A stretch of DNA of 64,000 bases from a virus: the IMG/VR virus record IMGVR_UViG_3300028840_003851, one strand, 5' to 3'. The position numbers and the translations under genes are program-made. The notes below the pieces were generated by a model. The model had not been told where the DNA came from. It saw nothing but the letters and a program-made list of their open reading frames with translations, and made no database searches. This document shows positions 2,210 through 63,851 of the stretch, one piece after another (position 1 is the first letter of the stretch; the number at the start of each line of letters is the position of its first letter).

Positions 2210-3448
2210 TCAGACTTGGATTGTGGGGTTACCCGTCGACACTGAGGCGCTAAAGACCGCACCAGCAGAGATGATTCCCGGTGTTGTAGCGGGGGGAGCA
2301 CCAATGATGATGGGGATGGGTGCAACCGTGGTGAACAGCACCTGAGAGCCAACGGAGGCTACCGGCTTGGAGCCTCCGTTTATCTTCGTCACACCAGAGC
2401 TGATGTCCATTGCGTCACCGCCCTCAATACGCATGGTACCGCCAGCCTTGATGGTGATGTTCTTCTTGCTCTCTATGTAGATGTCGTCCTCTGCAACAAT
2501 CTTTATCTTCCCCTTAAATCCTAGGAAGACACTAGACCTAGAGCCTAGGTACACGCCACCAGCCTTGTCTATAAAGAAACGGAGCTTCGTGCTGTCTATT
2601 GCCGTGCTATTCGGCTCTCCTCCAGCAGCGTTGAACCCTTCGGGGGACACTGTGAGCTCGTACACCACTGGGTCGTCTGTACCTATCTCCAGCTCCTCTA
2701 GGTCCTCCTGCCACCCGTCACCAGGCTCCGCCATGGCGTCGAATGTTCCGGCACATACTCTGACGCTGGCCTCGCTCTGGTTAGCGAACAGCCTGAATGT
2801 ATGCTTGTAGCTGGTAGGCAGCGTGTCGTCCGGTGCTCCTTGGCGAACACCCCAGCTGATAGAGCCACCAGTGTTGTGATGCCTGTACGTCTGCGAGATG
2901 TCCTCAACCAGGTTCTGCAGCGGTATGTACAGCCTCTGCGCCAGCTCTGTGGAGCCTATCTGGAGAACTCCTCCTCTATGCAGAACAACGAAGTTGTTAT
3001 CCCTACCCCTCATCACGATGTCACCGGGCTTACTCCGAGACCTTCCTCCTGCAAACGTGTTTGAGCTCGTTTCGTCTGCTGCCTCATCACCCTCTGCAGG
3101 GACGTCTCGGTCCACCTGCTCTATCGGCATTATGAAGCACAGAACGAAAGGGGGAGGCCCATCACTAGGGATGCACACATAGCACTTAGCCCCTACCTCC
3201 GGGCATACGTACACTCCGTCTCCTCTATTAGAGTGGAGGTACGGTGAGGCCACCTGTATATCCATGAAGTGCAGCTGGTCGTACTTAGACACCACATCTA
3301 CAGTCCACGTCGCCATGTTAAGGCCAGTTACCACGCATTCTATTATGTGCGCTCCTACTCTGCCCTCTGGCTGTGTCCATGTTGTACGGAAGGTGGAGCG
3401 ATAAAGGGGGCTCTCGCTCTCATACGTTTTTACACCCTTGAGCGGCAT
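2210..3448 (-). CDS. Baseplate central spike protein (gpV/gp5/VgrG-like)
   Basis: N-terminal OB-fold-like segment (GDGVYVCPEVGAKCYVCIP) and C-terminal beta-helix-type repeats (GKIKIVAEDDIYIESKKNITIKAGGTMRIEGGDAMDISS). Confidence 0.65.
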   Translation of the reverse strand: MPLKGVKTYESESPLYRSTFRTTWTQPEGRVGAHIIECVVTGLNMATWTVDVVSKYDQLHFMDIQVASPYLHSNRGDGVYVCPEVGAKCYVCIPSDGPPPFVLCFIMPIEQVDRDVPAEGDEAADETSSNTFAGGRSRSKPGDIVMRGRDNNFVVLHRGGVLQIGSTELAQRLYIPLQNLVEDISQTYRHHNTGGSISWGVRQGAPDDTLPTSYKHTFRLFANQSEASVRVCAGTFDAMAEPGDGWQEDLEELEIGTDDPVVYELTVSPEGFNAAGGEPNSTAIDSTKLRFFIDKAGGVYLGSRSSVFLGFKGKIKIVAEDDIYIESKKNITIKAGGTMRIEGGDAMDISSGVTKINGGSKPVASVGSQVLFTTVAPIPIIIGAPPATTPGIISAGAVFSASVSTGNPTIQV

Positions 3449-6400
3449 TAGTACGCGTGCTCCGGTACGTCTAGAAGTCTAGTAAGACCTGGGGTTCTCT
3501 TGGCATGCTCCTTCGTCACACCAAACTCAGCTCCGTATGCGATGCCAGGAACAGGGTGTACACCGTGTATGTGCGACACAGCTCCTGTAGCCGCCGAGTC
3601 CATGATGGTGCTTCTAAGCCTCTCGTGCTGCAGCTTAGCCATCCAGTCCTGCTGAGCTTGGAGTGGGGCGAAGTCCACCCCCTTCAGTATAGGTGAATGC
3701 ACTGTCGGCTTCTTGCCCGCCTTCACGAGCTTCATGTTCTGCTCTCTTATCACAGACGCAGGCATTATCTCTCCCTTCAGAAGATACGGAGCATCCCCTG
3801 GGTCACGTATCTTCGTCGTGTTCGTCATCCCCTTAACTACCGTCTCCACGTGCTGCCTTCTTACTCCTTCCTCAGCGTAAATCTTGTGCAGCTCGTCTAC
3901 AAGGTGGTTCTGCACCTTCTCGAAGTTGTTGGTAGCCTTGTAGAGGTCCTTAGGATTGACCACTGTTCTTGAGGGGTCAGACAAGGATGTTCCGGCCTCT
4001 ATCTTGTCCCCAACCTTAGGCGGCCTCCAAGGAGAGTCATCGTCTACTGAGAACAAAGAGCGTCCCTTCTTATCCTTGCCCACATGGTGGGCTTTACCCC
4101 CGACCCACACCTTGGTACCGGTCTTGTCCCTCTGTATCTTCTCAACCCTGCCCGATGTCATGGCTAAGGTGGCTGAGTTCGCTATCTTGTCCGGCATAGA
4201 GGTCAGCTGCTGAACTCTCGCAAACTGGTCTGCAACCGACGCCTTGGGCGTCCACACCCCTCCACTGTGGAACGCCTTCATAGGGAGCTGCACTGAGCGC
4301 TCTCCGAGAGACTGTGCGGCGAGGATACCCACGTTGGTACCTACGGGGTACCGGTTACCATCTGCGCCCAGCCCTGCGCACTTCTGGCAGAGCCCTTGTC
4401 CGTGCGTACATTTAAGGGCGCTGCGAACTACAAGCTGGGCATTCTTGTCTGCTCTACGCATCTTTCCCAAGATGTCCGGTGTCAGCACCGTCCCAGCAGG
4501 GACCTCGAGACCTTTGGCCTTGAACGACCTTGCAAGGGTCCTGTCGTACGCCCCCTCGTCACCGACAGACATCGATACACCCCGGTCCGTCTTGCAGTCA
4601 TCGCCAGTTACAACAAGGTTCACGGTGTTCTGCACCAGCTTCTTGGAGAAGTAGCCTGGCTCCGACACCTCTTGAACCTTTCGTACAGAGCCCCTGCGTG
4701 CACCAGTGGCAGCCGTCCAATACCCTCCAAAGTCCATGCCCTCCGCGTAGGACTTGTCGACCGGTACCGGAACTGGCGAGCCAGTAGAGTCGACCATCAT
4801 CACAGGAGCTAAGGCCAGCTGCTTGTACTGGTCCCACCCCGGCTTGTTGCCTGACGATAGCATGGTTGCCAGATTGTTCTTTGGGAGCTTGGACCTGTGC
4901 TCCTTGTCCATCTCTGCACTAGCCTTAGCCCATACAAGGGGTATCTGGCGCTCCTTCTCCGCCTCGGACATCTTACTGGCGCGTATCAAGTCTACTCTCT
5001 TCTTTGCCATCCCTAGATGCTTGTCTCTGGTAGCTTTGTCCGGCTCTAGGTCCTCAAGCCCTAAGGAGTGTGCCCCCATCGGGATGTACATCTTGGTCTT
5101 GTCTGGTCGCTCCGCGTCCTCTATTGCCTGTCTACCCTTCTGTGCTGGGTTAGGAACAGACACAAGCCCGTTAGCAGCTTCAAACCCAAACTTCATCAGC
5201 TTGTGCGCCGAGTCTCCGAAGTCACCCTTGTGGTTCTTCGCTAGCTCCGAGTAGAGCTTAGTGATTCCCTTCTTGTCTAACGTGGGAAGAGACTCTATGG
5301 CCTTCTCCTGCATACCATCTGGAAGGGCAGACGCTACAAGCATCCTTCCTGGAGTGGTCTTCTTGCCTCCTACCGTCGCCAGCTCCGTCATACCCAGCTC
5401 CCCTCGTTGAGCAGCTTGCAGCGCCTCTGTCGGGCTCTTGTAGCTCTTACGACTGACCTTATCTACCTTGGTCATCTTGTAGAGACCCATAGCGCTGTCT
5501 AGACTAGGCTGGTACGTGACCTTTCCTGACGCCTCGGCGTACAGGTTCTTTGACGGGAGCATGCCCTTCGCCTCCTCAACAGCCTCCCTTCCTACGGGGA
5601 CGTAGGCGCTCATTGTATCCCCGTCAAAATCGGCATTGAAGCCGCCCGTCACCAACGGGTGAATCTTTATCGCCTTACCTCCTACAAGCTTTGTTTTGAA
5701 CGCCTGTACGGAGTGCTTGTGCAGCACGGGGTCTCTCTTCAGGATTACAGGACGTTCATCAGCGACAAGCTCTATCGCCCTGAGCACTGATGGGTTCTTA
5801 GTAGCCTTCTTATCGGCGAGCATAGACCTCGCCTCTAGTGGGTTTCTAGCTGCACCCGTCTCTACTAGCTTTCTGGCAACGAACGGTCGCATCAGCTTAA
5901 GCGCGTAGTCCTTAGGCATCCCCACCTCATCTACCCCGAGAGAGGGCTCAGGGACGATGACAGAGCGCATAGAGAGGTCTTGCCTTCGGTTCATTAGGGT
6001 CTTCTGGAAGAACCCCTCCTTAGGGGAGCTACCATGAATCTGCTGCAAGATTCCTTTGTACTTATCGTCCTCTCCAAATGTACCGACACCCATCACAGCC
6101 TTGACGCCATCATATAGACTCTTTCTAGCCTTTCGCTTGGCCGTGTTCTTGTCGAGAATCTCCTTCATAGAGTCCTTCTTGAGAGAGTCGTTACCCTGCG
6201 CTAGAAGCTGGTACAGCCCGTTAATGTCCTCCCACTTAATGGAGCCATCCTTCATTACAGATGCTGGACGCATCTGCGGCGGGATTACAGGAAGGTTCTC
6301 TAGAACATACGCCTCCGACGGTTTAGCGCCAATCTGCTTAAGTGCACGCAGGTACTTTATCTTTTTGACGGTAGAGTCCATCTCCTGCGTTGGCGCTCCG

Positions 6401-9400
6401 TGAGCCATGCCTTTAGGGACGGGCATCTCTTTAAGCTTCTTCTGCTGCGTCGCTAGCTCCTTGTTTACGTCTATCTTGTCTAGAAGGCGCTTTATCCCCG
6501 GTCCCCCCGTTAGAGCTCCAGGAGTGTCTAGAGCCACTATGTTTCCCTTCTCGTCTACCGCCTGGTCACCGCCAACAATACCTGTGTAATCCTTCTCTTT
6601 CAGGCCGGTTAGCTTCTGAATCGCAGTCTCGAAGACAGGGTTGGGTACGGGCTCTGCTAGCTTGATGTGGTTCCACCTCTTACCGCCGTGACCGCCTGTT
6701 ATCTTGGGGTCGAAGAGACCCCCTCTCTTAGGGACGGGCTCTCCGTTCTTATCTAGCTTTGTGTAGACAAGCTCAGCGGGCTTAGGAATTGCCCCGCTGG
6801 ACATGTCCTTTATCTGCTTATTCGTAAGCGGCAGAAGCTGTATGTTGTGGCCCTTCTTCTCTACATTGACGCCGGCCGCCTTCAACATCGATGTGAACTT
6901 GTTGAAGGAGAACGTTGGGCGGGGGGTAGGTAGAGGGGTTCCAGACTGTATCGCAGACCACACCTCTCTGTGCTGGCCTGCCCAGCCAAAGGGTCTGGGG
7001 TCGTCTCCCTCGCTCTTGATGGTCTGCATCTCCCTGATATTTGCCTTGGCCCCGTGCGCCAACAGGGAGTAGATGCCCAGTGGGCTCATGCGCTGCCCGC
7101 CAGTCTTCTTCCCACCTATAGGTAGAAGGTTGTTGTCGTAGCTCTCTGGCTCGTTGTCGCCTTTTAAGGGCATGCCTGAGCGTACCGCTGTCTTCTTGTC
7201 TATCTGATGGGTCAGCTTTAGCATGTGCTGGGGGCCCACGAGAACCTTCCCCAGACTCTGCTTGGTGACGGGGTCTATGAGCTCCTCCTTGTCCTCGATG
7301 CCATGCTCCTTGAGAGCCTTCTTGACCATCGCAAGGTTGTCGGCACCGGGTGCGAAGTTCTCCACAATGAATGGCTTGCCAGTCTTCTCTGCTACCTTCC
7401 CTGCGGCCGTCTCTAGTATCTGAGACGGGTTCATTCTGCCGGGAACTCCTGCGGGGTTGAGGGCTACATCGATGGGCTTACCATCCCTCGTATGTGGCAT
7501 CTCCTTATCTGGGAGGACACAGTTACCAGACCACACTGGGATGCCCAAACGACGCACGTAGATGATGTGGTTAGGAACGTCGACGCAGTAGACCCTCCCC
7601 TTGTACTCTTCCCAGCGCTCGTTACAGTACCTCTTATCGTTGTTCGTCCACACCTCGTCTTTCAAGGACCACCGAACGACAAGCTCTCCAGGCTTAGGCT
7701 CCTTAATGTTTGCAGAGAACCCTAGCTTCAAAGCTAGCTCCTGATAGTCATCAGCTAGCCTAGGGGAGGAGGTAAACAGCTCATAGCGAGTGTGGTTGTC
7801 CTTCGCTCTATAGTAAACACCACCGTCCCCCATAAACAGCGCATCAGCCAAAATCCTAAGCTGTCTCTGCGAGAGTACGAGGAGCTCACGAGGTATGAAC
7901 TTATCCTTAGCCTTACCGAACTGCTTTAGCCATGCGTGAAGCTGGGGGTCGGAGAAGGTAATCCTAGTAGCCTCTTTATAGGTACTGTACCCGAGTCGCT
8001 CAATCACGGAGCATATTCGCTCATATTCCTCTGGGTGTACGCTGCGAGTCTGCGCGATGTGTATGTGGGAGCTACCTCCAATACACCCCTCTGTAAGCCA
8101 AAGCCCGAAGAGCTCCAAAAACAGGTCTGTGTCGTACTTCCTAGGGGCAGAGAGCTTCTTGTGCCTCTTGGGGGCGTCTGGTCTACCAGGGATAGTAATC
8201 TCCTCGAGCTCCTCCCCCTCCCATACCCCAGTGCGAAGGTGTAACCGAGGCATCCCAAAACACTCCTTCGCAGGCTGTAGGGAATAGCTGCCCCTACGAG
8301 TACGAACGTAATGACGATGCTCTGGTGTCACCAGTAGGTTGAGTCTACGACCGCTATACGAGTACATCTTCCCGTCATGTTGCTGGTCAACGTACCCAGT
8401 AGGAGCTTGGTACTCAATCTTCCTGGTCGCCGGGTTGAGCGTACAAATCAGCTCCGTCCGGTCTAGGTCCTTGAAGAACCTCCAGCCCTTATCGGTTAAC
8501 ACCTCGGAATCATTAGAGAAACATGTTACAATCCCTTTGTTTCCATGACGCCCAGTCAGCTTATCCCCCGCTTTCATAGGCTCCACGGTCTTTACGTGGA
8601 CCGTTACCTCCTTGCCCTTCTTGTGTACCCCTACCACCTCCCCAGGGTGGTCAGACTCCCAGCGCAGAGAGATGTCTGTGTGCTGTCCGGACAGGCTCTT
8701 GCCTATGGAGCCCAGGTCCATCCTGTCCTTCATCTTGTACGGACGCATGGCTAGGACCAGAGGGTCTCCCGGCCTTACTGTCTGCCCTACCTTCACGACC
8801 CCCTTCTCGTCTAGCTTACCGTGCTGCTCCTTACCGAATGCCTCAGGGTGCTGGTTCCTGAACTTCTTGGGATCTGTGACAACCTGGTCCTCAAGGGCTA
8901 TAGGGAGCTTCTGCATGTGCACTGAGGACAGCTTCTTTGCCGCGCTCTCACTAACTACAACGCCATCCTCGAAGTTGTACCCCTTGTAGGGTAGATAGGC
9001 CGCTCTAAGATTTGTACCTAAGGCCAGCTTACCGTCTTTGGTAAAGTTCGTGTCCGCTACAGACTGCCTTCTCTTCACACTGTCCCCCACCTTTACCAGG
9101 GGGGTGGAGGTGATGACGGCTTTAGGGTCGTTCAACGGGAAGTTGTTGTACAGCTGTACCTCGTGCTTCTTCCCAGACTTATCCTTAACGACGATGGCGT
9201 CGCCCTTAACGCTTACTACCTCTCCGTCGACGGGAGACATGTGCCCTGACGCTTTACCTAGTAGCTCCTCGAACGTCTGTAACCCCTCCTTCTTAGAGCC
9301 CGTACCTACCTGTACTAAGGGGGCCTCTCTATGCTCTAAGGAGATAGACTGCTCTATGTGCTGCCCAGCGTATGTAGCTCTGTTCCCGGAGCAGCTGCCG

Positions 9401-10878
9401 ATGAAGGGAACTAGATTCGTCGTAGTGTTTAGAGCCTGAGACGCGTGCCGCTGTATGTAGTCTACGTTGTCTAGACTCCCGGTTGTTAGCTTGTTCCCCT
9501 TTCCGGCAATCTTTATCTCCTTGCCTACAGGCTTGGGCTTACCCTTATCCCACGTAACCTGGTCTGCCAGTGCTACGTTGGCGTTTACAAACTTGCTTGG
9601 CGGGACATCCTCCATTTTACCCGTCTTAACGTTGTACATCGGTACAACGGGCTCATTACCCTTCTTGCGGACCCCCATAGGGAGCCGTAGCGTGATACCC
9701 GTCTTCTCCCCCTCAGGAGTGCGTAGCGGGTCTAGGTACCCAAGGTGCGATGGGTTTATAGCCTTGGCATCCTCGGTCACGCGCTGTACAGACTGTATAC
9801 CGCCAGGTCCCAGCGGAGTTGTCTGAGAGGCGGAGGAGATAATCTCTACAGGGTTAATCTGGTCCGCCATTCGCGCCATTGAGGTACGGAACACCTGGCG
9901 TACAGGCTCGTTAAAGGAATCAAAGTTTACTATCTTCCGAATATCCGCCTTCGGATTGTCTATCTGCCTTTTACCCCTGGTCTCTACAATCTTCTTTGTC
10001 TTCCAGTGAGTGAGCTTGTCGTACGCAAAGTCCTCTACGGAGCGAAGGTTCTTGTACTCTAAGCTATCTCTATCATCCTCAGGAGCACCGGAGTGAACAT
10101 CAAGTATTCTCTTCGTCGCCTTGCGAAGAACGTCTCCCGTTATGTGGTCAGACTCTACACCCAGGGTAGACTTGGCCACCTCAGGCTGCATCTTAGTCGC
10201 TGTCATAGCCTCCTTGAAGTAGGCAGCAGCCTCCTTCTTAGATGGTGCGGCAGACTTCTTATCAGCCTTGTAGAACGCCTCCAGCGCTCCCTCAACTGCT
10301 CTGGCGCTCTTGTTCGCCTCTAACATCTCCTTGCCCCAGCTTTTTTGGAGCTGCTCGTCTGTAACCCCCATCTCCCTCATCAAGGGGTACAGCGGTATGT
10401 TGGACTTCTTTCTACGAAGAGACAGCTGCTTGCTGGCCGGGTCTAGCTCTATCTTAAAGTCTCTACCATCAGGAGCGTTAAAGGCCGTGTGCACCTTACC
10501 CTTAACATCACGCCTCGTGTACGCCCCTGGCTTCAGCTGCCACTGGCTGTCTACCTGGTACTCTTTACCGTCTATGATGTGGCTGAAACGACTGGTTACA
10601 GTCGGTATAGACGCTATCCGGACTCTCTCTTTAGACGTCTCCCCTGTCTCCTTGTTCTCTAGCCTCAACGTAGCATACACAGGAGTAGCAAAGGTCTTAC
10701 CTTTTATCTTGTGGTCGTGCTGCTTCCTGATGTCGTCGGGGTCTGTCCCTATATCTGCCTCTAGCTTCTCAAGGTGGAGCTCACGCTTCTTTCCCTTGAT
10801 AGGGAAGTGCTCACCGATACCCTCAAGAACCTTAGCCTTCAGCGCCTCGTTTGCCTCTTTGTGACTAGCGTACGGCAT
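3448..10878 (-). CDS. Single-chain DNA-directed RNA polymerase, fused beta + beta' (RpoB-RpoC-like), intein-containing
   Basis: Beta motifs: SQWQLKPG, GPGG, HLGYLDPLRTPEGEKTG, GDKLTGRHGNKG, LNPAGVPGRMN. Beta' motifs: GGLFDP, RQDLSMRSVIVPEP, KRDPVLHK, FNADFDGD (5617-5637), PGYFSKKL, C-x6-C-x2-C, AAQSLGE. All lie in one 2476-aa frame. Confidence 0.95.
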   Translation of the reverse strand: MPYASHKEANEALKAKVLEGIGEHFPIKGKKRELHLEKLEADIGTDPDDIRKQHDHKIKGKTFATPVYATLRLENKETGETSKERVRIASIPTVTSRFSHIIDGKEYQVDSQWQLKPGAYTRRDVKGKVHTAFNAPDGRDFKIELDPASKQLSLRRKKSNIPLYPLMREMGVTDEQLQKSWGKEMLEANKSARAVEGALEAFYKADKKSAAPSKKEAAAYFKEAMTATKMQPEVAKSTLGVESDHITGDVLRKATKRILDVHSGAPEDDRDSLEYKNLRSVEDFAYDKLTHWKTKKIVETRGKRQIDNPKADIRKIVNFDSFNEPVRQVFRTSMARMADQINPVEIISSASQTTPLGPGGIQSVQRVTEDAKAINPSHLGYLDPLRTPEGEKTGITLRLPMGVRKKGNEPVVPMYNVKTGKMEDVPPSKFVNANVALADQVTWDKGKPKPVGKEIKIAGKGNKLTTGSLDNVDYIQRHASQALNTTTNLVPFIGSCSGNRATYAGQHIEQSISLEHREAPLVQVGTGSKKEGLQTFEELLGKASGHMSPVDGEVVSVKGDAIVVKDKSGKKHEVQLYNNFPLNDPKAVITSTPLVKVGDSVKRRQSVADTNFTKDGKLALGTNLRAAYLPYKGYNFEDGVVVSESAAKKLSSVHMQKLPIALEDQVVTDPKKFRNQHPEAFGKEQHGKLDEKGVVKVGQTVRPGDPLVLAMRPYKMKDRMDLGSIGKSLSGQHTDISLRWESDHPGEVVGVHKKGKEVTVHVKTVEPMKAGDKLTGRHGNKGIVTCFSNDSEVLTDKGWRFFKDLDRTELICTLNPATRKIEYQAPTGYVDQQHDGKMYSYSGRRLNLLVTPEHRHYVRTRRGSYSLQPAKECFGMPRLHLRTGVWEGEELEEITIPGRPDAPKRHKKLSAPRKYDTDLFLELFGLWLTEGCIGGSSHIHIAQTRSVHPEEYERICSVIERLGYSTYKEATRITFSDPQLHAWLKQFGKAKDKFIPRELLVLSQRQLRILADALFMGDGGVYYRAKDNHTRYELFTSSPRLADDYQELALKLGFSANIKEPKPGELVVRWSLKDEVWTNNDKRYCNERWEEYKGRVYCVDVPNHIIYVRRLGIPVWSGNCVLPDKEMPHTRDGKPIDVALNPAGVPGRMNPSQILETAAGKVAEKTGKPFIVENFAPGADNLAMVKKALKEHGIEDKEELIDPVTKQSLGKVLVGPQHMLKLTHQIDKKTAVRSGMPLKGDNEPESYDNNLLPIGGKKTGGQRMSPLGIYSLLAHGAKANIREMQTIKSEGDDPRPFGWAGQHREVWSAIQSGTPLPTPRPTFSFNKFTSMLKAAGVNVEKKGHNIQLLPLTNKQIKDMSSGAIPKPAELVYTKLDKNGEPVPKRGGLFDPKITGGHGGKRWNHIKLAEPVPNPVFETAIQKLTGLKEKDYTGIVGGDQAVDEKGNIVALDTPGALTGGPGIKRLLDKIDVNKELATQQKKLKEMPVPKGMAHGAPTQEMDSTVKKIKYLRALKQIGAKPSEAYVLENLPVIPPQMRPASVMKDGSIKWEDINGLYQLLAQGNDSLKKDSMKEILDKNTAKRKARKSLYDGVKAVMGVGTFGEDDKYKGILQQIHGSSPKEGFFQKTLMNRRQDLSMRSVIVPEPSLGVDEVGMPKDYALKLMRPFVARKLVETGAARNPLEARSMLADKKATKNPSVLRAIELVADERPVILKRDPVLHKHSVQAFKTKLVGGKAIKIHPLVTGGFNADFDGDTMSAYVPVGREAVEEAKGMLPSKNLYAEASGKVTYQPSLDSAMGLYKMTKVDKVSRKSYKSPTEALQAAQRGELGMTELATVGGKKTTPGRMLVASALPDGMQEKAIESLPTLDKKGITKLYSELAKNHKGDFGDSAHKLMKFGFEAANGLVSVPNPAQKGRQAIEDAERPDKTKMYIPMGAHSLGLEDLEPDKATRDKHLGMAKKRVDLIRASKMSEAEKERQIPLVWAKASAEMDKEHRSKLPKNNLATMLSSGNKPGWDQYKQLALAPVMMVDSTGSPVPVPVDKSYAEGMDFGGYWTAATGARRGSVRKVQEVSEPGYFSKKLVQNTVNLVVTGDDCKTDRGVSMSVGDEGAYDRTLARSFKAKGLEVPAGTVLTPDILGKMRRADKNAQLVVRSALKCTHGQGLCQKCAGLGADGNRYPVGTNVGILAAQSLGERSVQLPMKAFHSGGVWTPKASVADQFARVQQLTSMPDKIANSATLAMTSGRVEKIQRDKTGTKVWVGGKAHHVGKDKKGRSLFSVDDDSPWRPPKVGDKIEAGTSLSDPSRTVVNPKDLYKATNNFEKVQNHLVDELHKIYAEEGVRRQHVETVVKGMTNTTKIRDPGDAPYLLKGEIMPASVIREQNMKLVKAGKKPTVHSPILKGVDFAPLQAQQDWMAKLQHERLRSTIMDSAATGAVSHIHGVHPVPGIAYGAEFGVTKEHAKRTPGLTRLLDVPEHAY
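7522..8523 (-). mobile_element. Intein (334 aa) with LAGLIDADG-type homing endonuclease, in the RNAP beta moiety
   Basis: Begins CFSNDSEVLTDKGW and ends VYCVDVPNHIIYVRRLGIPVWSGN, followed by Cys+1. Internal FGLWLTEGC and ADALFMGDG motifs. Removal restores GRHGNKGIVT|CVLPDKEMP. Confidence 0.92.
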
Positions 10879-10962: not shown

Positions 10963-11145
10963 GTGAAGAGGACATCAACCTTAACAAAGGAGATGACGAT
11001 GTCTTTCCCCGATGATGAGGGGCTTTTAAGCCCCGACCAGCAAGAGCAAGAGCAAGATGACTCCTACCCCGAGTCCGACGAGGACTCGGGTGCAGCGTGG
11101 TCGGCGATATCCAGCGCCGACTACCTGTACGAGGAGGAGGACTGA
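10963..11145 (+). CDS. Small highly acidic protein
   Basis: D/E-rich ORF of 50-60 aa (possible starts 10963, 10990 or 10996). Confidence 0.55.
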   Translation: MKRTSTLTKEMTMSFPDDEGLLSPDQQEQEQDDSYPESDEDSGAAWSAISSADYLYEEED

Positions 11146-11273
11146 TGTCCGCGCTCTTCTGGTCCTCCTTCGTTGTTGGGTTCCTATCTGGTCTAGGTTT
11201 CTGGGCTAGAGACGAGCTCGACAAGAGGGAGCGTAAGGATGGTAAGGATGCTTCGGCATCCCTCCAGCCTTAA
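11145..11273 (+). CDS. Small membrane peptide (42 aa; not in ORF track)
   Basis: TGATG overlap with the upstream ORF; MSALFWSSFVVGFLSGLGFWARDELDKR has one hydrophobic helix. Confidence 0.5.
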   Translation: MSALFWSSFVVGFLSGLGFWARDELDKRERKDGKDASASLQP

Positions 11274-11898
11274 CGGGGCTAGAAGGGTTGCGGACGAGTG
11301 GGGGGTTACCGGTACTGTGCTTTGGCACCCCGGTAGCCCCCCACGTTCTTGGACTGTCCACAGCCTTTTTAGACCTGTAAACAGCGTAGGTCTGCGCGCA
11401 CGACTGGTAGATGACAAAGGTTTCATTACCTTCATAAATCAGATGGAGCTAGAGATGCTTCTCGGTACCGCATCTCAGGGCTCGTGGTGCTCGTGGGCAG
11501 GTAGACCCTACCCGGCCCCCGGTGGGCCTGAGTGGGAGGGTCTTTTAGCTACGGAGGGAGACCTTCTTGATGACCTGTACGACAGAGAGCAGTACATCAG
11601 GTACATGTTCCCCGACAAGATACCAGGAGGTGCTGAGATAAGAAGACGTGTGTACACAGGTGGGCGAAATGTAGAGCAACTTCTTGTCCTTTTATGGGAT
11701 AAGGACCCTGAGACAGGCATAGAGCCTGACAGTAGATACGAGACGTTAAGCCGCCGATGGGCAGCCGTTGAAGAGGAGGTACAAGAATGGACATGCTTGC
11801 CCTTAACAGACAGATTGGGGTGGGTTCCCTCGCTGTCAGTGGCCACAGATGCAGCTACTGCAACAGGGACATTCCCCTATCCGTACCGGGGGATGTAG
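11239..11898 (+). CDS. Hypothetical protein
   Basis: 219-aa ORF in the operon direction; start uncertain. Confidence 0.55.
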   Translation: MVRMLRHPSSLNGARRVADEWGVTGTVLWHPGSPPRSWTVHSLFRPVNSVGLRARLVDDKGFITFINQMELEMLLGTASQGSWCSWAGRPYPAPGGPEWEGLLATEGDLLDDLYDREQYIRYMFPDKIPGGAEIRRRVYTGGRNVEQLLVLLWDKDPETGIEPDSRYETLSRRWAAVEEEVQEWTCLPLTDRLGWVPSLSVATDAATATGTFPYPYRGM

Positions 11899-15768: not shown

Positions 15769-15804
15769 TGAAAATAAAAGGGAAACCACAGTATAAGAAT
15801 ACTG

Positions 15805-16020
15805 ATGGAACAATTAATAGATGCAATCCACTCGGCCATCCTCGAAGAAAACCTTCAAAACAGAGAACACCTCTCACAGAGGGTGATTATTCGCCTTCTC
15901 GAAGAGAACCTGTTTCCGTACGAACTCCTCCCCTATTATGGGGAGGGGGAGTACCACCAAGAGGACCAGAAGGTGCTCTTGGAGGTACTCCAAGAGCTCG
16001 ATAAGGTCGAGTACACCTAA
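15805..16020 (+). CDS. Small hypothetical protein
   Basis: 71 aa; preceded by ATAAGAATA (15793-15801). Confidence 0.65.
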   Translation: MEQLIDAIHSAILEENLQNREHLSQRVIIRLLEENLFPYELLPYYGEGEYHQEDQKVLLEVLQELDKVEYT

Positions 16021-16029
16021 GGGATTACT

Positions 16030-16058
16030 AGAAGCTCTCCCACACGAGCTTCTTTTAG
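16030..16058 (+). terminator. Rho-independent terminator (repeat unit 1)
   Basis: AGAAGCTC-N8-GAGCTTCT stem followed by TTTAG. Confidence 0.7.
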
Positions 16059-16095
16059 CCCCCTAAATTATCTCTATAAAACGGGGATAAGAGTA
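16053..16095 (+). promoter_or_regulatory. Bipartite putative phage promoter
   Basis: TTTTAGCCCCCTAAA, then ATAAGAGTA 31 nt after the TAG, followed by TTG ATG. Confidence 0.65.
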
Positions 16096-16464
16096 TTGAT
16101 GAAAAGCAGGTTCTACACGATAACGGAGTGGGACTCCACCACAGAGGTGGTGGAGGCCCGAGAGGGGCGTGATACTGTCCTCATAAAGTATGAGGATGGT
16201 ATCACTAACATGGTGACAGCAGCTTACTTTCGTGAGCTGCTGCCAACAGTAACTGTAGAGAGCATCACAGCTCGGTGCTCTAGGTTCTCGGGATGGAATC
16301 TTAAGTGGGAGGTCGAAGATGGCCTCCTACGCATGTATGACCCTAGTAACTACAGCAGATCGTCTCTGATCCTGAACAAGGACGGGGTCGAGGTACATGG
16401 GCGCCTCCGTCACTGGGGAGTGACGTTGGATGAGCTGAAAGTGCTGCTCGCAGCTATCCCGTAA
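16096..16464 (+). CDS. Hypothetical protein
   Basis: 122-aa ORF directly after the promoter motif. Confidence 0.65.
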   Translation: MMKSRFYTITEWDSTTEVVEAREGRDTVLIKYEDGITNMVTAAYFRELLPTVTVESITARCSRFSGWNLKWEVEDGLLRMYDPSNYSRSSLILNKDGVEVHGRLRHWGVTLDELKVLLAAIP

Positions 16465-16476
16465 CAGGAATTACCT

Positions 16477-16542
16477 AGAAGCTCTCCCATGTGAGCTTCT
16501 TTTAGCCCCTGAAATTACCTCTATAATACAGGTATAAGAGTA
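16477..16542 (+). promoter_or_regulatory. Terminator + bipartite promoter cassette (repeat unit 2)
   Basis: Near-identical to 16030-16095: AGAAGCTC..GAGCTTCT TTTAGCCCCTGAAA...ATAAGAGTA ATG ATG. Confidence 0.7.
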
Positions 16543-16842
16543 ATGATGGAGAACGCCTTCCAGTCTCCTCTCTTGAGAGAGGCAGCTGAGGTTGTCCTCA
16601 CCAACCCGTACTACGACGGGTTGGTTCACCACGGGGAGCTGTCCTTCCGATACCGGGAGGACAGCGGTTGCCACCCACTGGTGGCTGACGTCGCAGCGAC
16701 TATCCAATCCGGCTATTGGCCGAACTGGATGGTCGACCTCGACGCGGCCACCACTCGGGAGCTCATGGACCACGTAAGCGGGGTCAATGAGCTACCGGCG
16801 TTTGGCACCACCCTCTTCGGAGGGTGGTACTACCCGTGGTAG
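16543..16842 (+). CDS. Hypothetical protein
   Basis: 99-aa ORF directly after the promoter motif. Confidence 0.65.
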   Translation: MMENAFQSPLLREAAEVVLTNPYYDGLVHHGELSFRYREDSGCHPLVADVAATIQSGYWPNWMVDLDAATTRELMDHVSGVNELPAFGTTLFGGWYYPW

Positions 16843-16984
16843 AGGACAAGCCATCAACGAGCCAGGCGCAAACCTGGTAGGCCGTGCCAGGCTTGAGCGG
16901 GGACTGAGGATTAATGCCCTCAGCGAGACCGCAGGCATCTGGGGATGACCTCCCAGATTAGGAGGCCCATGGTCAAGGCAGTAG

Positions 16985-56969: not shown

Positions 56970-59555
56970 TCACACAAGACCATACGCGCTGAGCGCTGAT
57001 ATTGTCTGAGGAGAGATGCCTCCTGCAGCACTCATGGCGCTCCCGAATGTAGGATACGGGTTACCTATAGAAGCTCTAGGAGCTACGGGACCACCTGGCC
57101 CCACAGACCATCCGGACGACAAGGGACCGCCTCCCGCCATCCGCATCCCAGAGCCCTTCATCGCCTTCATGATTGCTCTTTGCTCGTTAGCCTGCACCTT
57201 GAACGCGGTAGGGTAGTAATCCTCCTTCCCCATCACCTGCACCTTGGCCGTCTTCTCCTGCACCGCAGCCTGCTTCACCTCCATCCCTAGCTCCCTGGCA
57301 CGTTCCACCCTCCCCTGAAGGTCCTTGACCCGAAGAAGCTGACGACGTACCTCCTTCGCACTGTCTCGCGGAGCTCCTCCACTTCTCTGGTTGGCGAGAA
57401 GGGTGCCTACTGTGCTTCCTCCCAGCACTCCAACGAGAGGTGCCGCTTGCGCCAGGAGATGCTTTCCTCCAAGAGCACGGGCACCGAGACCTGCACCAAA
57501 GCCTAAGCCAGCACCAGCCAAACCGTACAGCTGCTGCCGCCTCCTGCGCTCCTTCATCTGCTCTGCCGCGCCGGCAGCTCTCTCCAGAGCCTGACCCTGT
57601 TGATGGTGGGCCAAGATACCCTCCAGCAGGGCTGCAGTGTCGTCCCCCTTTTCCGCCGTCTTTGCTGTGCCCTCCGGGTCTACACCCAAAAGAGCCTTAA
57701 CGACGTCAAGGCCAACCTCAAACATGCTGCTTAATAGCTTAGGGGGTATGTGCTCCTTATATGCCTGTAGTGCGTCACTCTTGTTGTCATAGCCGACAAA
57801 CACCTTGTACTCATCGAACGTACCGTCCGGCTTTACCTGCCTAGCCCAGAATGTCCTTGTAGAGCCTTTGCTCGGGCCTACGAACACATCAAGGCTATCC
57901 CCGTCTCCTCCATTAGCACCTTTGAGGTAGCCGTAGTCTGTCTTGTACACGCGCTTCCACGGTGTACCCCCCTCGTCTACGCCCTCCATGACGAACCCCT
58001 TTGGGCGGTCTATGTGCACAGTGAGCCCTTGAAAGTATACCTTCTTCTTTGCTCTACCGTCCTGCGCAATCTTGTCTAGCTCTCCTACGAACCCACGCCA
58101 CCTGTGGAGCGCTGTAGGAGACCAGACCTCTGCTCTTTTCTCTTTGCTATCCATTAGCCCTCTAAACTGCCCTATCAGCTTCTCTTTACGTTGGGCGTGT
58201 GCCGTCAGGTACTCATCTATGCCCCCGCCGGGCTTTGTTATCTTCAGCTTCTCCAGCAACCCTGCCTTTGGTCTTGTGGCAAGGTAGCTCTCTACTGTGA
58301 TGTTTCGTTCCTTCTTGGGTAGGTGCGTATGGCTTCTGTACCTAATGCCTCGGCCTTCCACCTGCTTCAGCTTCTCTGTGTTCCAGTGTGGCTCTAGCAC
58401 CTGGAGCAGCCTGGTGCCCTTGAGGTCTAGCCCCTCACCGCCTGCTGAGCTAAGCAGTAGAACCCTCTTATTCCCTTCATTGTAGTCTCGAACCAGCTGG
58501 TCACGCTCCTTCTTGGGCATGGCCCCGGTGAACTCCCCGTAGGGGATGCCCGCCTGCTCAAGCCTCTCCTTGTACGGGCGTACCCCAGCATCCAGATAGT
58601 TTGAGTAGACCACCCCCTTAAACCTGGGGTTGCCCTCTAGCTTAGCCTTCATACGTTTGAACGCTGTATCAACCTTGGGCTCTTGGGGGGGCTCCTTTGG
58701 CGCATGCGCCCTCGTGGAGAGAGATATCTGCCGTACAGCAGAGGCAAACGCGTTAAGCTGCTTGGACTCCTGCTTGGAGGGGGGGAGACCCGCCTTTATC
58801 TTGAGCGCTACCCACGGAGGGGCTTGTCCTATTACCCCATCGTACAGCTTGCGCTGTTTGGCGGTCATGGGAACCTTCACCACCTCCCTCCTCACGTCTG
58901 GGAAGTCGGCCTTCGTGCCAGGGTGGTAGTCTACCCACGTACGCATCACCTTCTTGAGCTCGTTGGCCTGTCTCGGGTTAAGCTCCTGCACCGTCCCAGG
59001 CTTGGCCCCACGGATACGCTGCCACAAGGAAGGATTGATGCGCGTCTCCTTCACGTACCTCTGCTCAAAGCTCTTCTGGTCTGGGGGGAGGACACGCTCC
59101 CCCGCGGCAATGTTTATCAGAGGAGCTATGTCACTTGGCCTATTATAAAATGGGCTCGCCGTGAGGAGCATACGCTTATCTGAGAGGTTCCTCTTAAGCG
59201 CTTGATAGGTCTTAGAGTCCACCTCTCTTGCTCTGTGCGCCTCATCTACAATCAGCATGGGCGCATCTATCACCTCGCCTGCTCTTGCTACACGCTGCAG
59301 AGTAGTAATAGCCGCCTCGGGGGAGGTGCCTTCTATGTGCTTCTCTCGCTCCTTCTCGTAGTTCGCCTTCAAGGAGGCGGGCACGACCACAGTAGAAGGA
59401 AGACCTAACGCATCCTGTGCAGCAATAGAGCTGAGGGTCTTACCAGAGCCTAGCCCATGAGCCACTACCAGCCCTGGCTGCTCCTTCATACGCTCTACTA
59501 CCTTGCGCTGATGGGGCTTTAGCTCATGGCGTATTGCCGCGACCTTCTCAGACAT
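56970..59555 (-). CDS. SNF2-like helicase + inorganic-pyrophosphatase-like (InPase) domain polyprotein
   Basis: LKPHQ, HGLGSGKT, VDEAH, LLTASPF, GEGLDL, EPHWN and QVEGRGIR motifs; then FQGL..HIDRPKG...DYGY..G..GGDGDSLDVFVG...FDEYKVFVG. Confidence 0.85.
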   Translation of the reverse strand: MSEKVAAIRHELKPHQRKVVERMKEQPGLVVAHGLGSGKTLSSIAAQDALGLPSTVVVPASLKANYEKEREKHIEGTSPEAAITTLQRVARAGEVIDAPMLIVDEAHRAREVDSKTYQALKRNLSDKRMLLTASPFYNRPSDIAPLINIAAGERVLPPDQKSFEQRYVKETRINPSLWQRIRGAKPGTVQELNPRQANELKKVMRTWVDYHPGTKADFPDVRREVVKVPMTAKQRKLYDGVIGQAPPWVALKIKAGLPPSKQESKQLNAFASAVRQISLSTRAHAPKEPPQEPKVDTAFKRMKAKLEGNPRFKGVVYSNYLDAGVRPYKERLEQAGIPYGEFTGAMPKKERDQLVRDYNEGNKRVLLLSSAGGEGLDLKGTRLLQVLEPHWNTEKLKQVEGRGIRYRSHTHLPKKERNITVESYLATRPKAGLLEKLKITKPGGGIDEYLTAHAQRKEKLIGQFRGLMDSKEKRAEVWSPTALHRWRGFVGELDKIAQDGRAKKKVYFQGLTVHIDRPKGFVMEGVDEGGTPWKRVYKTDYGYLKGANGGDGDSLDVFVGPSKGSTRTFWARQVKPDGTFDEYKVFVGYDNKSDALQAYKEHIPPKLLSSMFEVGLDVVKALLGVDPEGTAKTAEKGDDTAALLEGILAHHQQGQALERAAGAAEQMKERRRRQQLYGLAGAGLGFGAGLGARALGGKHLLAQAAPLVGVLGGSTVGTLLANQRSGGAPRDSAKEVRRQLLRVKDLQGRVERARELGMEVKQAAVQEKTAKVQVMGKEDYYPTAFKVQANEQRAIMKAMKGSGMRMAGGGPLSSGWSVGPGGPVAPRASIGNPYPTFGSAMSAAGGISPQTISALSAYGLV

Positions 59556-59632
59556 GCCTCATCGTACCACCATCCGTATGCACCGAGCACCTCTGTCAGA
59601 GCGAGATGTGAAAGTTCGTCATGAAATAAAGC

Positions 59633-59641
59633 ATAAGAATA
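59633..59641 (+). promoter_or_regulatory. ATAAGARTA motif at the head of the third rightward block
   Basis: ATAAGAATA; divergent from the SNF2 gene start. Confidence 0.55.
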
Positions 59642-59847
59642 ACGAGATGGAAGATACATCTCAGGTGCCGACCAGAGTTAAAGCCCTCTGGTCAGGGAGA
59701 GCAGTCTCCCGCCATCGGAGTGGCGCCCGGTGGTTAGTGTTTTTTACCGAGGTACTCTCGGTAGGCTGGATGCTGGGCCGGTGACCAACAGCATCCGCAA
59801 AAGCCTGAGCACGGAGCTTCCCGGAGCTCTGCGCTGCTTATCTTAAG

Positions 59848-60132
59848 AGAGGCTGCGGTGTACCGCCGCGGATTAACCTCTCGCATGGGCTCCTACCAGT
59901 CCCTTAAAGGTAGGGTACGGCTCATGGCAGGTCTCCTCTTCACAATGAGGCCACATGCAAAGGGACACGCAACGACTCTGACAGCACCGCCACGTTGGGC
60001 CTTCGGCCTCTCGCGGTGCAGTCAGATTCGCCGCGCTACACCCTCCGCTAATGGTGTCTCTCGGGGCGTCAGGAGGAAGTGTAGGGCTGTGGGTTATAGG
60101 CCCCAGCGGGTTCGAGTCCCGAAACAGCCTCT
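59848..60132 (+). ncRNA. Putative structured ncRNA with tRNA-like ends
   Basis: Closing stem AGAGGCTG/CAGCCTCT, T-arm CGGG-TTCGAGT-CCCG and several long internal helices. Confidence 0.55.
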
Positions 60133-60357
60133 ATGTATAAGACAAAAGGCATGACTCAGTCCGAGCTCTCCGAGCTCGGACTGATTGCTGGGTACCACAT
60201 AGTACCCAGCAACCCCCCACGCCTCCCGCGTGGGGAGCTAACACCGGCCTGCGAGTGTGAGTCGGACCACTGGGTCCGACTATTCGGCCCATGGTACGTC
60301 TGCCCCCTCTGCGGGGCAGCTCCTGCTGAAGGGCACGAGCCACTCGTATGCAGGTAA
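60133..60357 (+). CDS. Small zinc-finger protein
   Basis: CEC..H...CPLCG motifs. Confidence 0.5.
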   Translation: MYKTKGMTQSELSELGLIAGYHIVPSNPPRLPRGELTPACECESDHWVRLFGPWYVCPLCGAAPAEGHEPLVCR

Positions 60358-60414
60358 GGGTAATGGGAGCTCCCCTATGAGAGCGCCCCGTCCAAGCTGA
60401 GACGTTAAACCAGC

Positions 60415-60461
60415 TTTTCTTAGCTCCTTAAAAGTACGCTCAAGAATAGGTAATAAGAATA
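60415..60461 (+). promoter_or_regulatory. Bipartite putative phage promoter
   Basis: CTTAGCTCCTTAAA, then ATAAGAATA (60453-61) 32 nt after the TAG, followed by GTG. Confidence 0.6.
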
Positions 60462-60518
60462 GTGAAGGAGACCACAGACACGTGCAAAGGTTGTGCGCTG
60501 CTCTAGTGGTTCAAGAAA

Positions 60519-61691
60519 ATGTCGAACATCACTTCCAACATCACCACCATCACCACCATCAGCACAACCGCAACCATAATCAACACCCCGGTGGTAGTCG
60601 ACCGCCGGGAGGGGGAGGAGGACCGAAGGGTCCTCGAGGTGGTTGGGGACGTAAGGGATGAGGAGGAGATTGAAAATCTCCTCCTCATTGTGGACGCGTT
60701 GATGGAGGGGAGGGAGGAGGTGGTTCCTGCCCTCCTCCCGGAGGGGTGGGAGTACAACGACGGGTACTTCCCACCCCGTATCGACACCACGTGGGAATCC
60801 CCGACCTCCCCGCTCCCCCCTATGGGAGCGGTGAAGGATTACCTGAACGAAATCCGGGTATCCATCCAAAACTATCCCCCGAGTGATGAGGTTGCCCGGG
60901 CCGTAATGGCTTGGGCCGAGACCCTCCCAGAGGGTAGGGGGAGGCGACTGGTGGGGGGAGCCCAAGCGGGCTCCGGGCACATAGCCCTACTCGATGGATG
61001 GAACGCCTACCAGCGAGAAGGGTGTGACTGGGTGAGCGTAGAGTTCGAGTTCCCTCCCGTCGAGGAGGTAATAGGGGCTCTGCGCGCCCTGCGTCCCGGG
61101 AGGTACGATAGGGAGGAGGTTGCCGTTCTCGGCAATCGGTTCTCCAGGCTACCCTGGGGATCGATTGAGGGGATGCCCGGATGGTTCATCCAGGACAGGG
61201 CAAAAGGGGACTGGTCGTCCCCTTACAGGGAGCGGACATTGTGCCTCCACCGAGTACCGGTAGTGACCATGGAGTACTGCACCTCCCTGATGCCCTTCAG
61301 GACCTTGGAGCTCCAGGTGTTCTCCGTGGAGGAGGGTAAGGCCCTCCGCCAGAGGGAGAAGGAGGAGAACCGCGCCAGTGCCCGAGAGTACGCAGACTCT
61401 AGGGCCCAGGCTAGGGACCTTCTCCTAGCAGGGGCGGAGCTGCAGTACTTTCCCGGGCAGATGGGAGGGGTGCTGTACTTTGAGGGCCTGCAAAGGTATG
61501 TCTCCGCTCACGGCGCCCTGCGGGGGCTCCTCCCGGATGTCGAGGTGGCAGAGCTGCTGTATAAGGCGGCGCAGGAGGACGCACCTCGCTGGATACGACT
61601 CCCACGGAAGCCCACTATACCAAAGTGGGTGGGGAAGAAGGCGGGGAGGTCCGCCGAAGCAGACATAGAGGAGGGGCTGGCTGAGCTCTAA
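60519..61691 (+). CDS. Hypothetical protein (390 aa)
   Basis: Long ORF after the promoter motif; T/I-rich N-terminus. Confidence 0.7.
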   Translation: MSNITSNITTITTISTTATIINTPVVVDRREGEEDRRVLEVVGDVRDEEEIENLLLIVDALMEGREEVVPALLPEGWEYNDGYFPPRIDTTWESPTSPLPPMGAVKDYLNEIRVSIQNYPPSDEVARAVMAWAETLPEGRGRRLVGGAQAGSGHIALLDGWNAYQREGCDWVSVEFEFPPVEEVIGALRALRPGRYDREEVAVLGNRFSRLPWGSIEGMPGWFIQDRAKGDWSSPYRERTLCLHRVPVVTMEYCTSLMPFRTLELQVFSVEEGKALRQREKEENRASAREYADSRAQARDLLLAGAELQYFPGQMGGVLYFEGLQRYVSAHGALRGLLPDVEVAELLYKAAQEDAPRWIRLPRKPTIPKWVGKKAGRSAEADIEEGLAEL

Positions 61692-61888: not shown

Positions 61889-62182
61889 ATGAAATACAAC
61901 CGCGACTGCAGCGTGTGCCTCAGTGAGAGGCGCAACCCATTCAGTCATGAATGGGACTGCGTCGCGGGTCCAGAGTGCCCGGAGTGCCATAAGTGCTCCG
62001 GGGTAATATTCGACACACAGTACAAGTCGGTAGACGGAAAATACTACTGGCGGGAGTACTATGTCGAGCCCCATGGCCGCATGGGGAACAGAAGCTACAA
62101 CGACGACTACCGAGTCGGGTACTTCTGCTCATGCGGCTGGGAGTACTCCAGACCCCGGCGTAGGAAGAAGGATGATGAGTAA
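61889..62182 (+). CDS. Small Cys-rich protein
   Basis: CSVC, CPECHKC and CSCG motifs. Confidence 0.6.
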   Translation: MKYNRDCSVCLSERRNPFSHEWDCVAGPECPECHKCSGVIFDTQYKSVDGKYYWREYYVEPHGRMGNRSYNDDYRVGYFCSCGWEYSRPRRRKKDDE

Positions 62183-62250
62183 GGGAGCTCTCAAGTCCCA
62201 CGTCTAAGCTGTGAGACGTTAAACCATGGGCGCAACAGCCCTACCAGCAC

Positions 62251-63692: not shown

Positions 63693-63701
63693 CAATCGAT
63701 G

Positions 63702-63775
63702 TGCCCAGCGATAGGGTCGAACTCGCAGCATACCGCTTTTGAGGCGGCCTCCTCTGCCTTTTGGGCTAGCTTGGC
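63702..63775 (-). tRNA. tRNA-Leu(CAA), imperfect T-stem
   Basis: GCCAAGC...GCCGC CT-CAA-AA GCGGT...GAG TTCGACC CT...GCTGGGC A; one acceptor mismatch and two T-stem mismatches. Confidence 0.7.
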
Positions 63776-63851
63776 TGGTACCGGGAACAAGAGTCGAACT
63801 TGCACTGAGCTGGTTCTAAGCCAGCTGCCTCTGCCGTTGGGCTACCCCGGC
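63776..63851 (-). tRNA. tRNA-Leu(TAG) with encoded CCA
   Basis: GCCGGGG TA GCCCAACGGCAGAGGC A GCTGG CT-TAG-AA CCAGC TCAGT GCAAG TTCGACT CTTGT TCCCGGT ACCA. Confidence 0.93.

Follow-up and report, generated by a model that had tools for sequence, protein, structure and literature searches.

Many RNAs of large phages resemble tRNA without being either tRNA or transfer-messenger RNA (tmRNA). The segment considered in this work is a possible case of this kind. It is 285 nt long, lies at positions 59848-60132 on the plus strand of a 64,000-nt stretch of phage DNA (the 64-kb window) from IMG/VR record IMGVR_UViG_3300028840_003851, and is referred to as the element. In tmRNA, the G3.U70 pair is the alanine identity, the resume codon is normally GCN, and the tag ends in a hydrophobic degron. 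Tag-less tmRNA forms also exist, and one of them is found in phage DS6A (PMC11915505). The tRNA region of phage T4 encodes two small stable RNAs, RNAC and RNAD, to which no role has been assigned (Uzan and Miller 2010, PMC3014915). The YrlA-type Y RNAs (RF02553) have paired ends and a tRNA-like T arm and are known in phages (Chen et al. 2014, PMC4201824). The genome that contains the element also has two tRNA mimics that end in CCA, located on the minus strand some 9.5 kb ahead of the window (L039 11962-12160). One of these mimics, of about 110 nt, consists of a 7-bp acceptor, a D hairpin, a long helix that replaces the anticodon arm, a T arm, and ACCA.

Judged from its predicted structure, the element probably adopts a many-armed RNA fold in which the T arm is of the tRNA type. 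We tentatively consider it, at a confidence somewhat below even, to be a tRNA-derived structured non-coding RNA (ncRNA) domain akin to the tRNA mimics of the phage, for which the mimic of about 110 nt is a precedent. The element and the mimics exhibit the same order of parts, namely a closing helix, a D-position hairpin, an inserted body, a T arm, and a closing 3' strand, and neither is called as an ordinary tRNA. The mimics differ in that the 7-bp acceptor sits directly on a 5-bp T stem, the D loop contains GG, ACCA is encoded, and the length is 85-110 nt, whereas in the element the body is branched and 237 nt long, AAA separates the closing helix from a T stem of 4 bp, the D-position hairpin has the 3-nt loop UAC, and the 3' flank is AUGUAU. 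Another T arm with the same loop as that of the element (GAGGG-UUCGAGU-CCCUC) was identified in the same genome about 5 kb before the window (L037 17075-17195, plus strand). It is located in a gap of 570 nt without genes, immediately ahead of tRNA-Ile(UAU), and receives no tRNA call.

The element also shares features with the other systems. Like the tmRNAs of RF00023, including those of two sister phages described below, it has a closing helix, a UUCGAnU T arm near the 3' end, and a pseudoknot candidate upstream of a short frame, and it is phage-encoded and about 300 nt long; it differs in having a hairpin in place of the D-loop analogue. It resembles RNAC and RNAD of T4 in being a phage-encoded non-tRNA RNA tied to a tRNA gene region. 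The T4 RNAs are however smaller and lie inside the tRNA transcription unit, whereas the tRNAs nearest to the element are 3.6 kb off and on the other strand. The element would share with YrlA the paired ends and the tRNA-like T arm of an ncRNA, but the order of the tRNA-like elements differs. The element has neither a match to RF02553 nor the Ro-binding motif GNCGAAN0-1G, and no Ro60/TROVE gene is present among the precomputed Pfam hits over 168 kb of the genome. Finally, an alternative local fold at 60084-60130, with a 7-bp acceptor-like helix, a small hairpin, and a T arm but no D arm, gives the only Rfam alignment that touches the element. This alignment is to mascRNA/MALAT1 (RF01684) and reaches 14.9 bits (E 8.8), whereas the gathering score is 42.5. 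Because the family is a eukaryotic one, the likeness is of shape only.

Predicted structure of the element

The predicted fold is a closed multi-branch structure in which helix P1 encloses the hairpins P2 to P7, the T arm, and an AAA spacer that precedes the 3' strand of P1. The parts are as follows.

59848-59855, plus strand: 5' strand of P1 (AGAGGCUG), the closing, acceptor-like helix; perfect 8-bp complement of 60125-60132
59855-59869, plus strand: P2, a hairpin right after P1 at the D-arm position; 5-6 bp, 3-nt loop UAC, no D-loop GG
59884-59926, plus strand: P3, a hairpin with an internal loop and two G.U pairs; its 11-nt loop (59898-59908) includes GUCCCU
59927-59958, plus strand: P4, an irregular hairpin of the predicted fold
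59961-59966, plus strand: AGGGAC, which may form a pseudoknot with the P3 loop or, in the alternative pairing of the minimum free energy (MFE) structure, pair with GUCCC in the T arm
59968-60034, plus strand: P5, a long near-palindromic hairpin that contains most of a proposed tag frame
60035-60083, plus strand: P6, a nested hairpin made of CUACAC/GUGUAG, CCUCC/GGAGG, and the inner GGUGUCUC/GGGGCGUC
60084-60106, plus strand: P7, a hairpin with the 7-nt loop UUAUAGG; its 5' flank GGGCUGU has an alternative partner
60107-60121, plus strand: T arm CGGG-UUCGAGU-CCCG; 4 bp, canonical T loop
60122-60124, plus strand: AAA, which separates the T stem from the 3' strand of P1; tRNA and tmRNA have no such spacer
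60125-60132, plus strand: 3' strand of P1 (CAGCCUCU), followed by AUG UAUAAG, without CCA

The pairs of P1 are, in order, A-U, G-C, A-U, G-C, G-C, C-G, U-A, and G-C, and the UUCRAnY loop of the T arm is closed by G-C as in tRNA. The strings that had been listed in an earlier reading of the DNA (the sequence-only reading) were re-checked, and all of them are present at their positions. They are the closing strands beginning at 59848 and 60125; the T arm at 60107-60121; CCUACC (59892) and GGUAGG (59909) with the loop GUCCCU (59899) and its match AGGGAC (59961); UCUGAC and GCACCGC (59977 and 59984) with GCGGUGC and GUCAGA (60013 and 60021); CUACAC and GUGUAG (60036 and 60079); and CCUCC and GGAGG (60042 and 60072).

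The plus strand has an MFE of -127.8 kcal/mol, compared with -108.8 +/- 5.3 for 200 dinucleotide shuffles (z -3.55), of which 0/200 were as good. Its ensemble is tight, with a mean base-pair distance of 26.7 (66.8 +/- 19.7 in shuffles) and a positional entropy of 0.44 (0.98 +/- 0.28 for shuffles). The minus strand is diffuse, with a mean base-pair distance of 61.9 and a centroid of -98.9 vs an MFE of -127.6. Each strand has ten G.U pairs in its MFE structure, and the T-loop motif is present on the plus strand only. A 4-bp Watson-Crick T arm with a TTCRANY loop was found in 0.44% of 5000 dinucleotide shuffles of the 963-nt intergenic gap that holds the element. The same T arm with a perfect 8-bp long-range helix beginning at most 6 nt away was found in 0.04% of them, which corresponds to about 0.03 expected occurrences when extrapolated to the entire 64-kb window. 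It is unlikely that the T arm with its closing helix is accidental.

The most stable 285-nt windows of the 64 kb are located elsewhere, at 11021-11400, 15771-16900, and 60136-60900, with a GC-corrected z of -3 to -4 for each of the two strands. Each consists of long perfect hairpins in an array that overlaps small open reading frames (ORFs). The array at 60136-60900 covers the first 380 nt of the gene for a 390-aa orphan protein, the N-terminus of which is a low-complexity run rich in N, I, and T.

The coding potential was assessed by codon log-odds scoring, with 24 long genes of the window as the training set; real genes score 0.25 +/- 0.08 and wrong frames -0.29 +/- 0.12. The element is non-coding because all six of its frames score between -0.30 and -0.11. 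A 98-codon ORF that begins with GTG (59858-60154) stays open over the whole element, and on that account a protein-coding gene might be proposed. Such a gene is extremely improbable, given that this ORF scores -0.15 (more than 5 standard deviations under real genes), that its product is Arg-rich with a junk-like composition, and that it has neither a Shine-Dalgarno sequence nor promoter geometry.

Comparison with tmRNA

The sequence-only reading had interpreted the element as a divergent tmRNA-like RNA or a new phage ncRNA class. The checks that it named for tmRNA, which are Infernal/Rfam and ARAGORN in tmRNA mode, returned nothing. The tmRNA models (RF00023 and the permuted forms) have 0 matches at gathering or E<=10 on 59400-60600. 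ARAGORN makes no tmRNA call at the default or the 80% threshold, and at 60% it makes only junk permuted calls on the other strand. As a positive control, the tmRNAs of the sister phages score 104 and 101 bits in the same models. The sister phages are two IMG/VR phages with which the gene order of this phage is colinear, G001 (186,723 bp, complete) and G002 (103 kb). G001 has a canonical tmRNA at 143109-143476 with the tag ANDNATPALAVDKAA (104 bits), and G002 has one at 8522-8891 with the tag ANDNANQAAA (101 bits).

Both sister tmRNAs lie about 26-34 kb away and adjoin homologues of genes found at record positions 83.7-85.2 kb of this phage, about 24 kb to the right of the element. The genome of this phage, of about 178.6 kb, was read to 168 kb (94%) by walking via exact-protein look-ups. 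There is no RNA gene at the site syntenic to the sister tmRNAs (record positions 83.7-86.8 kb) and no tmRNA by ARAGORN or Rfam in the 168 kb, and therefore the phage appears to have lost tmRNA in its own lineage. Judged from sequence comparison, the element is not a replacement copy of a sister tmRNA. Its global alignments to the two sister tmRNAs score below shuffles (z -0.8 and -0.9), and the two sister tmRNAs aligned together score 374 vs 150 in shuffles. In both sister phages the tmRNA is followed by about 600-700 nt of gene-poor, strongly folding DNA (G002 8891-9570 and G001 143476-144110). In G002 this DNA exhibits a T-arm-like hairpin (9200), 310 nt downstream of the tmRNA, that is flanked by CUGAACG/CGUUCAG and for which ARAGORN makes no call.

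The sequence-only reading had itself noted that the G3.U70 pair, an encoded CCA, and an ALAA-type end are absent, and this is correct. The pair at position 3 of the element is A3-U, and the alternative local helix has G1.U but G3-C. The geometry is 8 bp, AAA, and 4 bp, vs the 7-bp acceptor stacked on a 5-bp T arm of tmRNA. The element has neither a D-loop analogue of the GGnUUCGAC type nor pseudoknots PK2-4. It also has no H2 helix, as none of the predicted folds contains a helix that links 59870-59883 with the stretch preceding the T arm. The 27-codon frame at 59971-60051, which had been said to echo tags that begin with AND, does exist, and its CAACGAC is common with the sister tags. This 7-mer is nevertheless at chance level, since the 7-mers common to the element and the sister tmRNAs (CAACGAC and CUCUCGC) are as many as expected by chance at such lengths, and its distance is different: the pseudoknot candidate ends 4 nt before AAC, compared with 12 nt in G001. 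The in-frame codon before AAC is CGC and not an Ala resume codon. The frame that starts with GCA runs off the element without a stop, and the tag would end in YTLR, which is not a degron-like end.

A divergent tmRNA or a mimic of trans-translation, with a tRNA-like domain, a pseudoknot, and a tag frame from about 59968-59971, is highly improbable. The layout is similar, with a closing helix, a pseudoknot candidate, then CAACGAC as in the sister tags (GCC AAC GAC), and then a hairpin; both sister phages have a tmRNA that is missing here from the syntenic site and from the 94% of the genome that was read, and tag-less tmRNA forms are known. The tag-less forms, however, keep the alanine-identity tRNA-like domain, which the element does not, and the tmRNA reading failed all of the sequence-level tests above. 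The element is thus not a tmRNA by any criterion that can be tested on its sequence. Of the earlier interpretation, the part on tmRNA is not supported, since no tmRNA or tRNA model matches, the features that define a tRNA-like domain are missing, and the element has no detectable similarity to the sister tmRNAs. A new phage ncRNA is plausible because the element is non-coding and structured, has an unlikely combination of T arm and closing helix, and matches no known family. A class cannot be claimed because the element is a singleton.

Comparison with other RNA families and homologue searches

The element matches 0/4227 Rfam families, the weak RF01684 alignment aside. The tRNA model (RF00005) gives no match at E<=10, and there is no cloverleaf with an anticodon arm. 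ARAGORN with introns allowed (-i) makes no call at default, and its calls at the 70-80% threshold have mismatched acceptor stems. GOLLD, ROOL, OLE, HEARO, RNase P, SRP, 6S, group I/II introns, and small ribozymes also have no match at E<=10. The resemblance of GAGGAAGUGUAGGGCU to the CR-I consensus of RNase P was dropped since the RNase P models do not match. An attP site, which would be a copy of the 3' end of a host tRNA, was rejected. The 21-mer that comprises the T loop and the 3' strand occurs once in 185,579 species genomes, and this sole occurrence sits inside a coding region without tRNA. No complement of at least 14 nt that could serve as an antisense target was found elsewhere in the 168 kb.

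Searches with blastn identified no match to the element in 50,697 phage records and only chance matches in the related-phage loci and the whole G001 and G002 records. The exact scans of viral contigs yielded 0 matches for a 24-mer and 10 matches for a 16-mer, all of which are tRNAs or chance. A single-sequence covariance model of the element (R1) was run on some 1.5 Mb of DNA from related phages and had no match outside the phage itself. It was null on seven related phage records (the two sister phages and five further relatives), 18 metagenome loci, the 10 motif matches, and the 168 kb of the own genome, where only fragments of 5-7 bits near the tRNA-Ile region were obtained; the reverse strand of the element also matches the P5 part of the model. 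The route via neighbouring genes gave 20 metagenome loci with no RNA match.

Genomic location and transcription context

The source is an uncultured phage that is represented by circularly permuted contigs from sediment and seawater metagenomes of two studies, in which it is present at about 28x. None of the public runs listed for this DNA is an RNA run, which speaks neither for nor against expression. The element lies in a 963-nt gap (59556-60518) between an SNF2-InPase gene on the left, which is transcribed leftward, and the gene of the 390-aa orphan on the right, which is transcribed rightward. The best non-self relative of the SNF2 protein is 74% identical, and its locus has no upstream gap. 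The orphan has no homologue among 5.8 billion proteins. The element is held by a segment of about 5 kb (~59556-64500) that G001 and G002 do not have. This island consists of the element, small ORFs, the orphan gene, two tRNA-Leu, tRNA-Trp, and an odd tRNA-Tyr. All of these tRNAs fall within 4 kb, which counts in favour of a tRNA-derived RNA. The two tRNAs with Leu anticodons (CAA and UAG) are adjacent at 63701-63775 and 63776-63851 on the minus strand and are only 75-76 nt each. Bacterial tRNA-Leu has a long variable arm; these two have none, and only one of them reaches the Rfam tRNA gathering score.

The phage encodes its own fused beta/beta' RNA polymerase, a 2476-aa protein at 3448-10878 on the minus strand. 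The precomputed Pfam hits include a weak LAGLIDADG match between its Rpb2 domains, which suggests an intein or a homing-endonuclease insertion. A 12-nt motif with the consensus ATAAnARTAnTG has 7 copies in the 168 kb, all on the plus strand and all intergenic, at 10954, 15793, 16087, 16534, 59633, 60453, and 61875. G001 carries the motif too, including at the site syntenic to 10954, and its copies are on the minus strand at 23751, 115788, 117221, 117764, 130830, and 130931. Because a start codon follows 9-14 nt after the beginning of the motif in 5/7 copies, the motif is very probably, on this pattern of positions, a promoter that serves one class of short cassettes, several of which are leaderless. 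It is probably recognised by the phage RNA polymerase, with the cassettes being hairpin-rich and each closed by a hairpin and a U run. Small Cys-rich ORFs were observed behind such motifs at 60151-60357 (CxC...CPxC) and 61889-62182 (multi-CxxC) on the plus strand. The features that flank the element are as follows.

59633-59644, plus strand: phage promoter motif ATAAGAATAACG, the nearest upstream promoter candidate for the element
59711-59745, plus strand: terminator-like hairpin and U run between this promoter and the element; the U run begins 6 nt past the stem
60137-60357, plus strand: variant promoter motif ATAAGACAAA and a 68-codon Cys-rich ORF (60151-60357) that begins 14 nt past the motif start and is full of perfect hairpins
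60394-60421, plus strand: terminator module AAGCUG-AGACGUUAAAC-CAGCUU with a U run; its loop recurs at 62212 (repeat D9)

The promoter motif at 59633 lies 215 nt upstream of the element, and this supports the existence of an RNA gene. The ORF behind it (59647-59784) has a codon score of -0.12, compared with 0.06-0.32 for the ORFs behind the other copies, and therefore the unit that this promoter heads seems, from codon usage, to be non-coding. The terminator-like site may be leaky, given its displaced U run. The variant promoter and the ORF at 60137-60357 mark the right-hand border of the element, and the codon score of this ORF (-0.02) is ambiguous. Another precedent is provided by G001 at about 130,840-130,931 on the minus strand (L019:10835-10925), where a copy of the motif is followed at once by a T-arm-like element of about 65 nt. 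This element consists of UGGG-UUCGACU-CCCA and a GGCCC-UUCG-GGGCC hairpin, has a second promoter 100 nt on, and receives no ARAGORN call. Its fold is not significant by energy (z -0.8), and from its sequence it may be a small promoter-driven tRNA-like RNA.

Proposed mechanism and alternative explanations

According to the interpretation as a tRNA-derived domain, the plus strand would encode an ncRNA domain on a tRNA-derived frame, made of the 8-bp closing helix, the D-position hairpin, and the canonical T arm. The frame would enclose a 237-nt multi-helix body of five further hairpins (P3-P7) with a possible loop pseudoknot, and it would reside in an accessory island that also holds odd tRNAs. 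Transcription would probably begin at the phage-specific promoter at 59633 and read through the weak terminator, and the RNA would be either part of a non-coding unit of about 500-800 nt or cut out of that unit. The T arm and the closing helix could form a handle for tRNA-handling proteins such as RNase P/Z, modification enzymes, and possibly the CCA-adding enzyme, and this handle could stabilise the RNA or present its body. By analogy with the other tRNA mimics of the phage, the target of the RNA may be the translation or RNA-processing apparatus of the host.

Several findings weigh against this interpretation. The promoter link is its weakest point. No promoter motif is present immediately upstream of the element, and the terminator-like site at 59711-59745 intervenes between it and the nearest promoter, so that synthesis of the element would require either read-through from 59633 or a promoter of a type that was not recognised. 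No homologue was found anywhere searched and the two metagenomes exhibit zero variants of the element; therefore, there is no covariation support. The minus strand is equal in energy (z -4.27), and when stability is regressed on GC content over all 285-nt windows of the phage, the element is just about 1.5 standard deviations beyond the background. With z -1.2 to -1.6, the stability of the 3' tRNA-like module by itself is not significant. An alternative partner competes with the 5' strand of P1 for its 3' strand, since GGGCUGU (60084-60090) can pair with ACAGCCU (60124-60130) to give the local D-armless tRNA-like fold, which is incompatible with P1. The pseudoknot between the P3 loop and AGGGAC is a 6-nt match that is not significant alone (estimated chance about 0.1), and GGGAC pairs instead with GUCCC of the T arm in the unconstrained MFE structure. 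The tRNA frame is also imperfect, with the AAA spacer, the 4-bp T stem, the 3-nt D-position loop without GG, and no CCA.

The main rival is that the T arm and the 3' strand are left over from a decayed tRNA or tRNA-mimic gene in a fast-evolving accessory island and that the rest is a functionless, hairpin-prone, G+C-rich spacer. This is unlikely, although it has to be taken seriously. It would agree with the imperfect tRNA geometry, with the lack of homologues of the element in the collections searched, and with an island that is unique to the phage and whose 390-aa gene is itself an orphan. It would also agree with the placement of the element between the terminator-like site that ends at 59745 and the promoter-like site at 60137 without a promoter motif of its own, and with the finding that the whole gap and two other gaps of the genome are even richer in hairpins. 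The tRNA covariance model, however, sees nothing at E<=10, and therefore the element is not a lightly decayed tRNA. A perfect 8-bp closure exactly beside a T arm is rare by chance, the plus-strand ensemble is unusually well defined, and 59500-60533 is identical between the contigs of both metagenome runs, which are of different years and habitats; these findings weigh against a relic. The element might instead be the central domain of a longer RNA that acts in cis or in trans, either one ornate transcript of about 59640-60421 or a structured leader of the ORF at 60151-60357, in which P1 and the local helix (60084-60090 with 60124-60130) would be alternative conformations. Hairpins do fill 59640-59847 and 60151-60420, no credible ORF is present at 59647-60150, 60124-60132 has two mutually exclusive partners, and the nearest canonical terminator module is at 60394-60421. 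We nevertheless regard a longer RNA as rather improbable. A promoter-like motif with the usual 14-nt spacing to ATG stands between the element and the ORF at 60151-60357, and therefore this ORF probably has its own start; in addition, neither conformation sequesters the start codon, and no riboswitch or leader family matches.

The remaining alternatives are less likely than these. The structure may belong to the minus strand or to the DNA, as the 5' untranslated region of the leftward operon led by SNF2 or as inverted repeats (operators, origin) in a divergent control region. The equal folding energy of the minus strand, the position of the gap in a divergent region at a local minimum of the cumulative GC skew, and the fact that the promoter of the SNF2 operon was not located are consistent with it. 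The poorly defined minus-strand ensemble, the T loop that is correct on the plus strand only, and the G.U pairs of P2 and P3, which in the complementary strand or a DNA cruciform are A.C mismatches, make it very unlikely. There is likewise only a slim chance that the element is the first representative of a novel class of large tRNA-framed phage RNAs and engages host translation or ribosome rescue in a lineage without the tmRNA of its sisters, for example as an uncharged decoy or scaffold presented via the T arm and the closing helix.

Implications

The main practical value of these findings is negative, in that the element should not be annotated as tmRNA. The contrast with the tmRNA-bearing sister phages is intriguing. 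If the element is real, it would be an extreme case among the tRNA-like RNAs of large phages, with a branched body of 237 nt carried by a tRNA frame. The phage itself, unlike its closest relatives, apparently has no tmRNA, and it already encodes other tRNA mimics as well as a PTH2-like gene. The element, if expressed, would be a handle on how phages tamper with translation or RNA processing.

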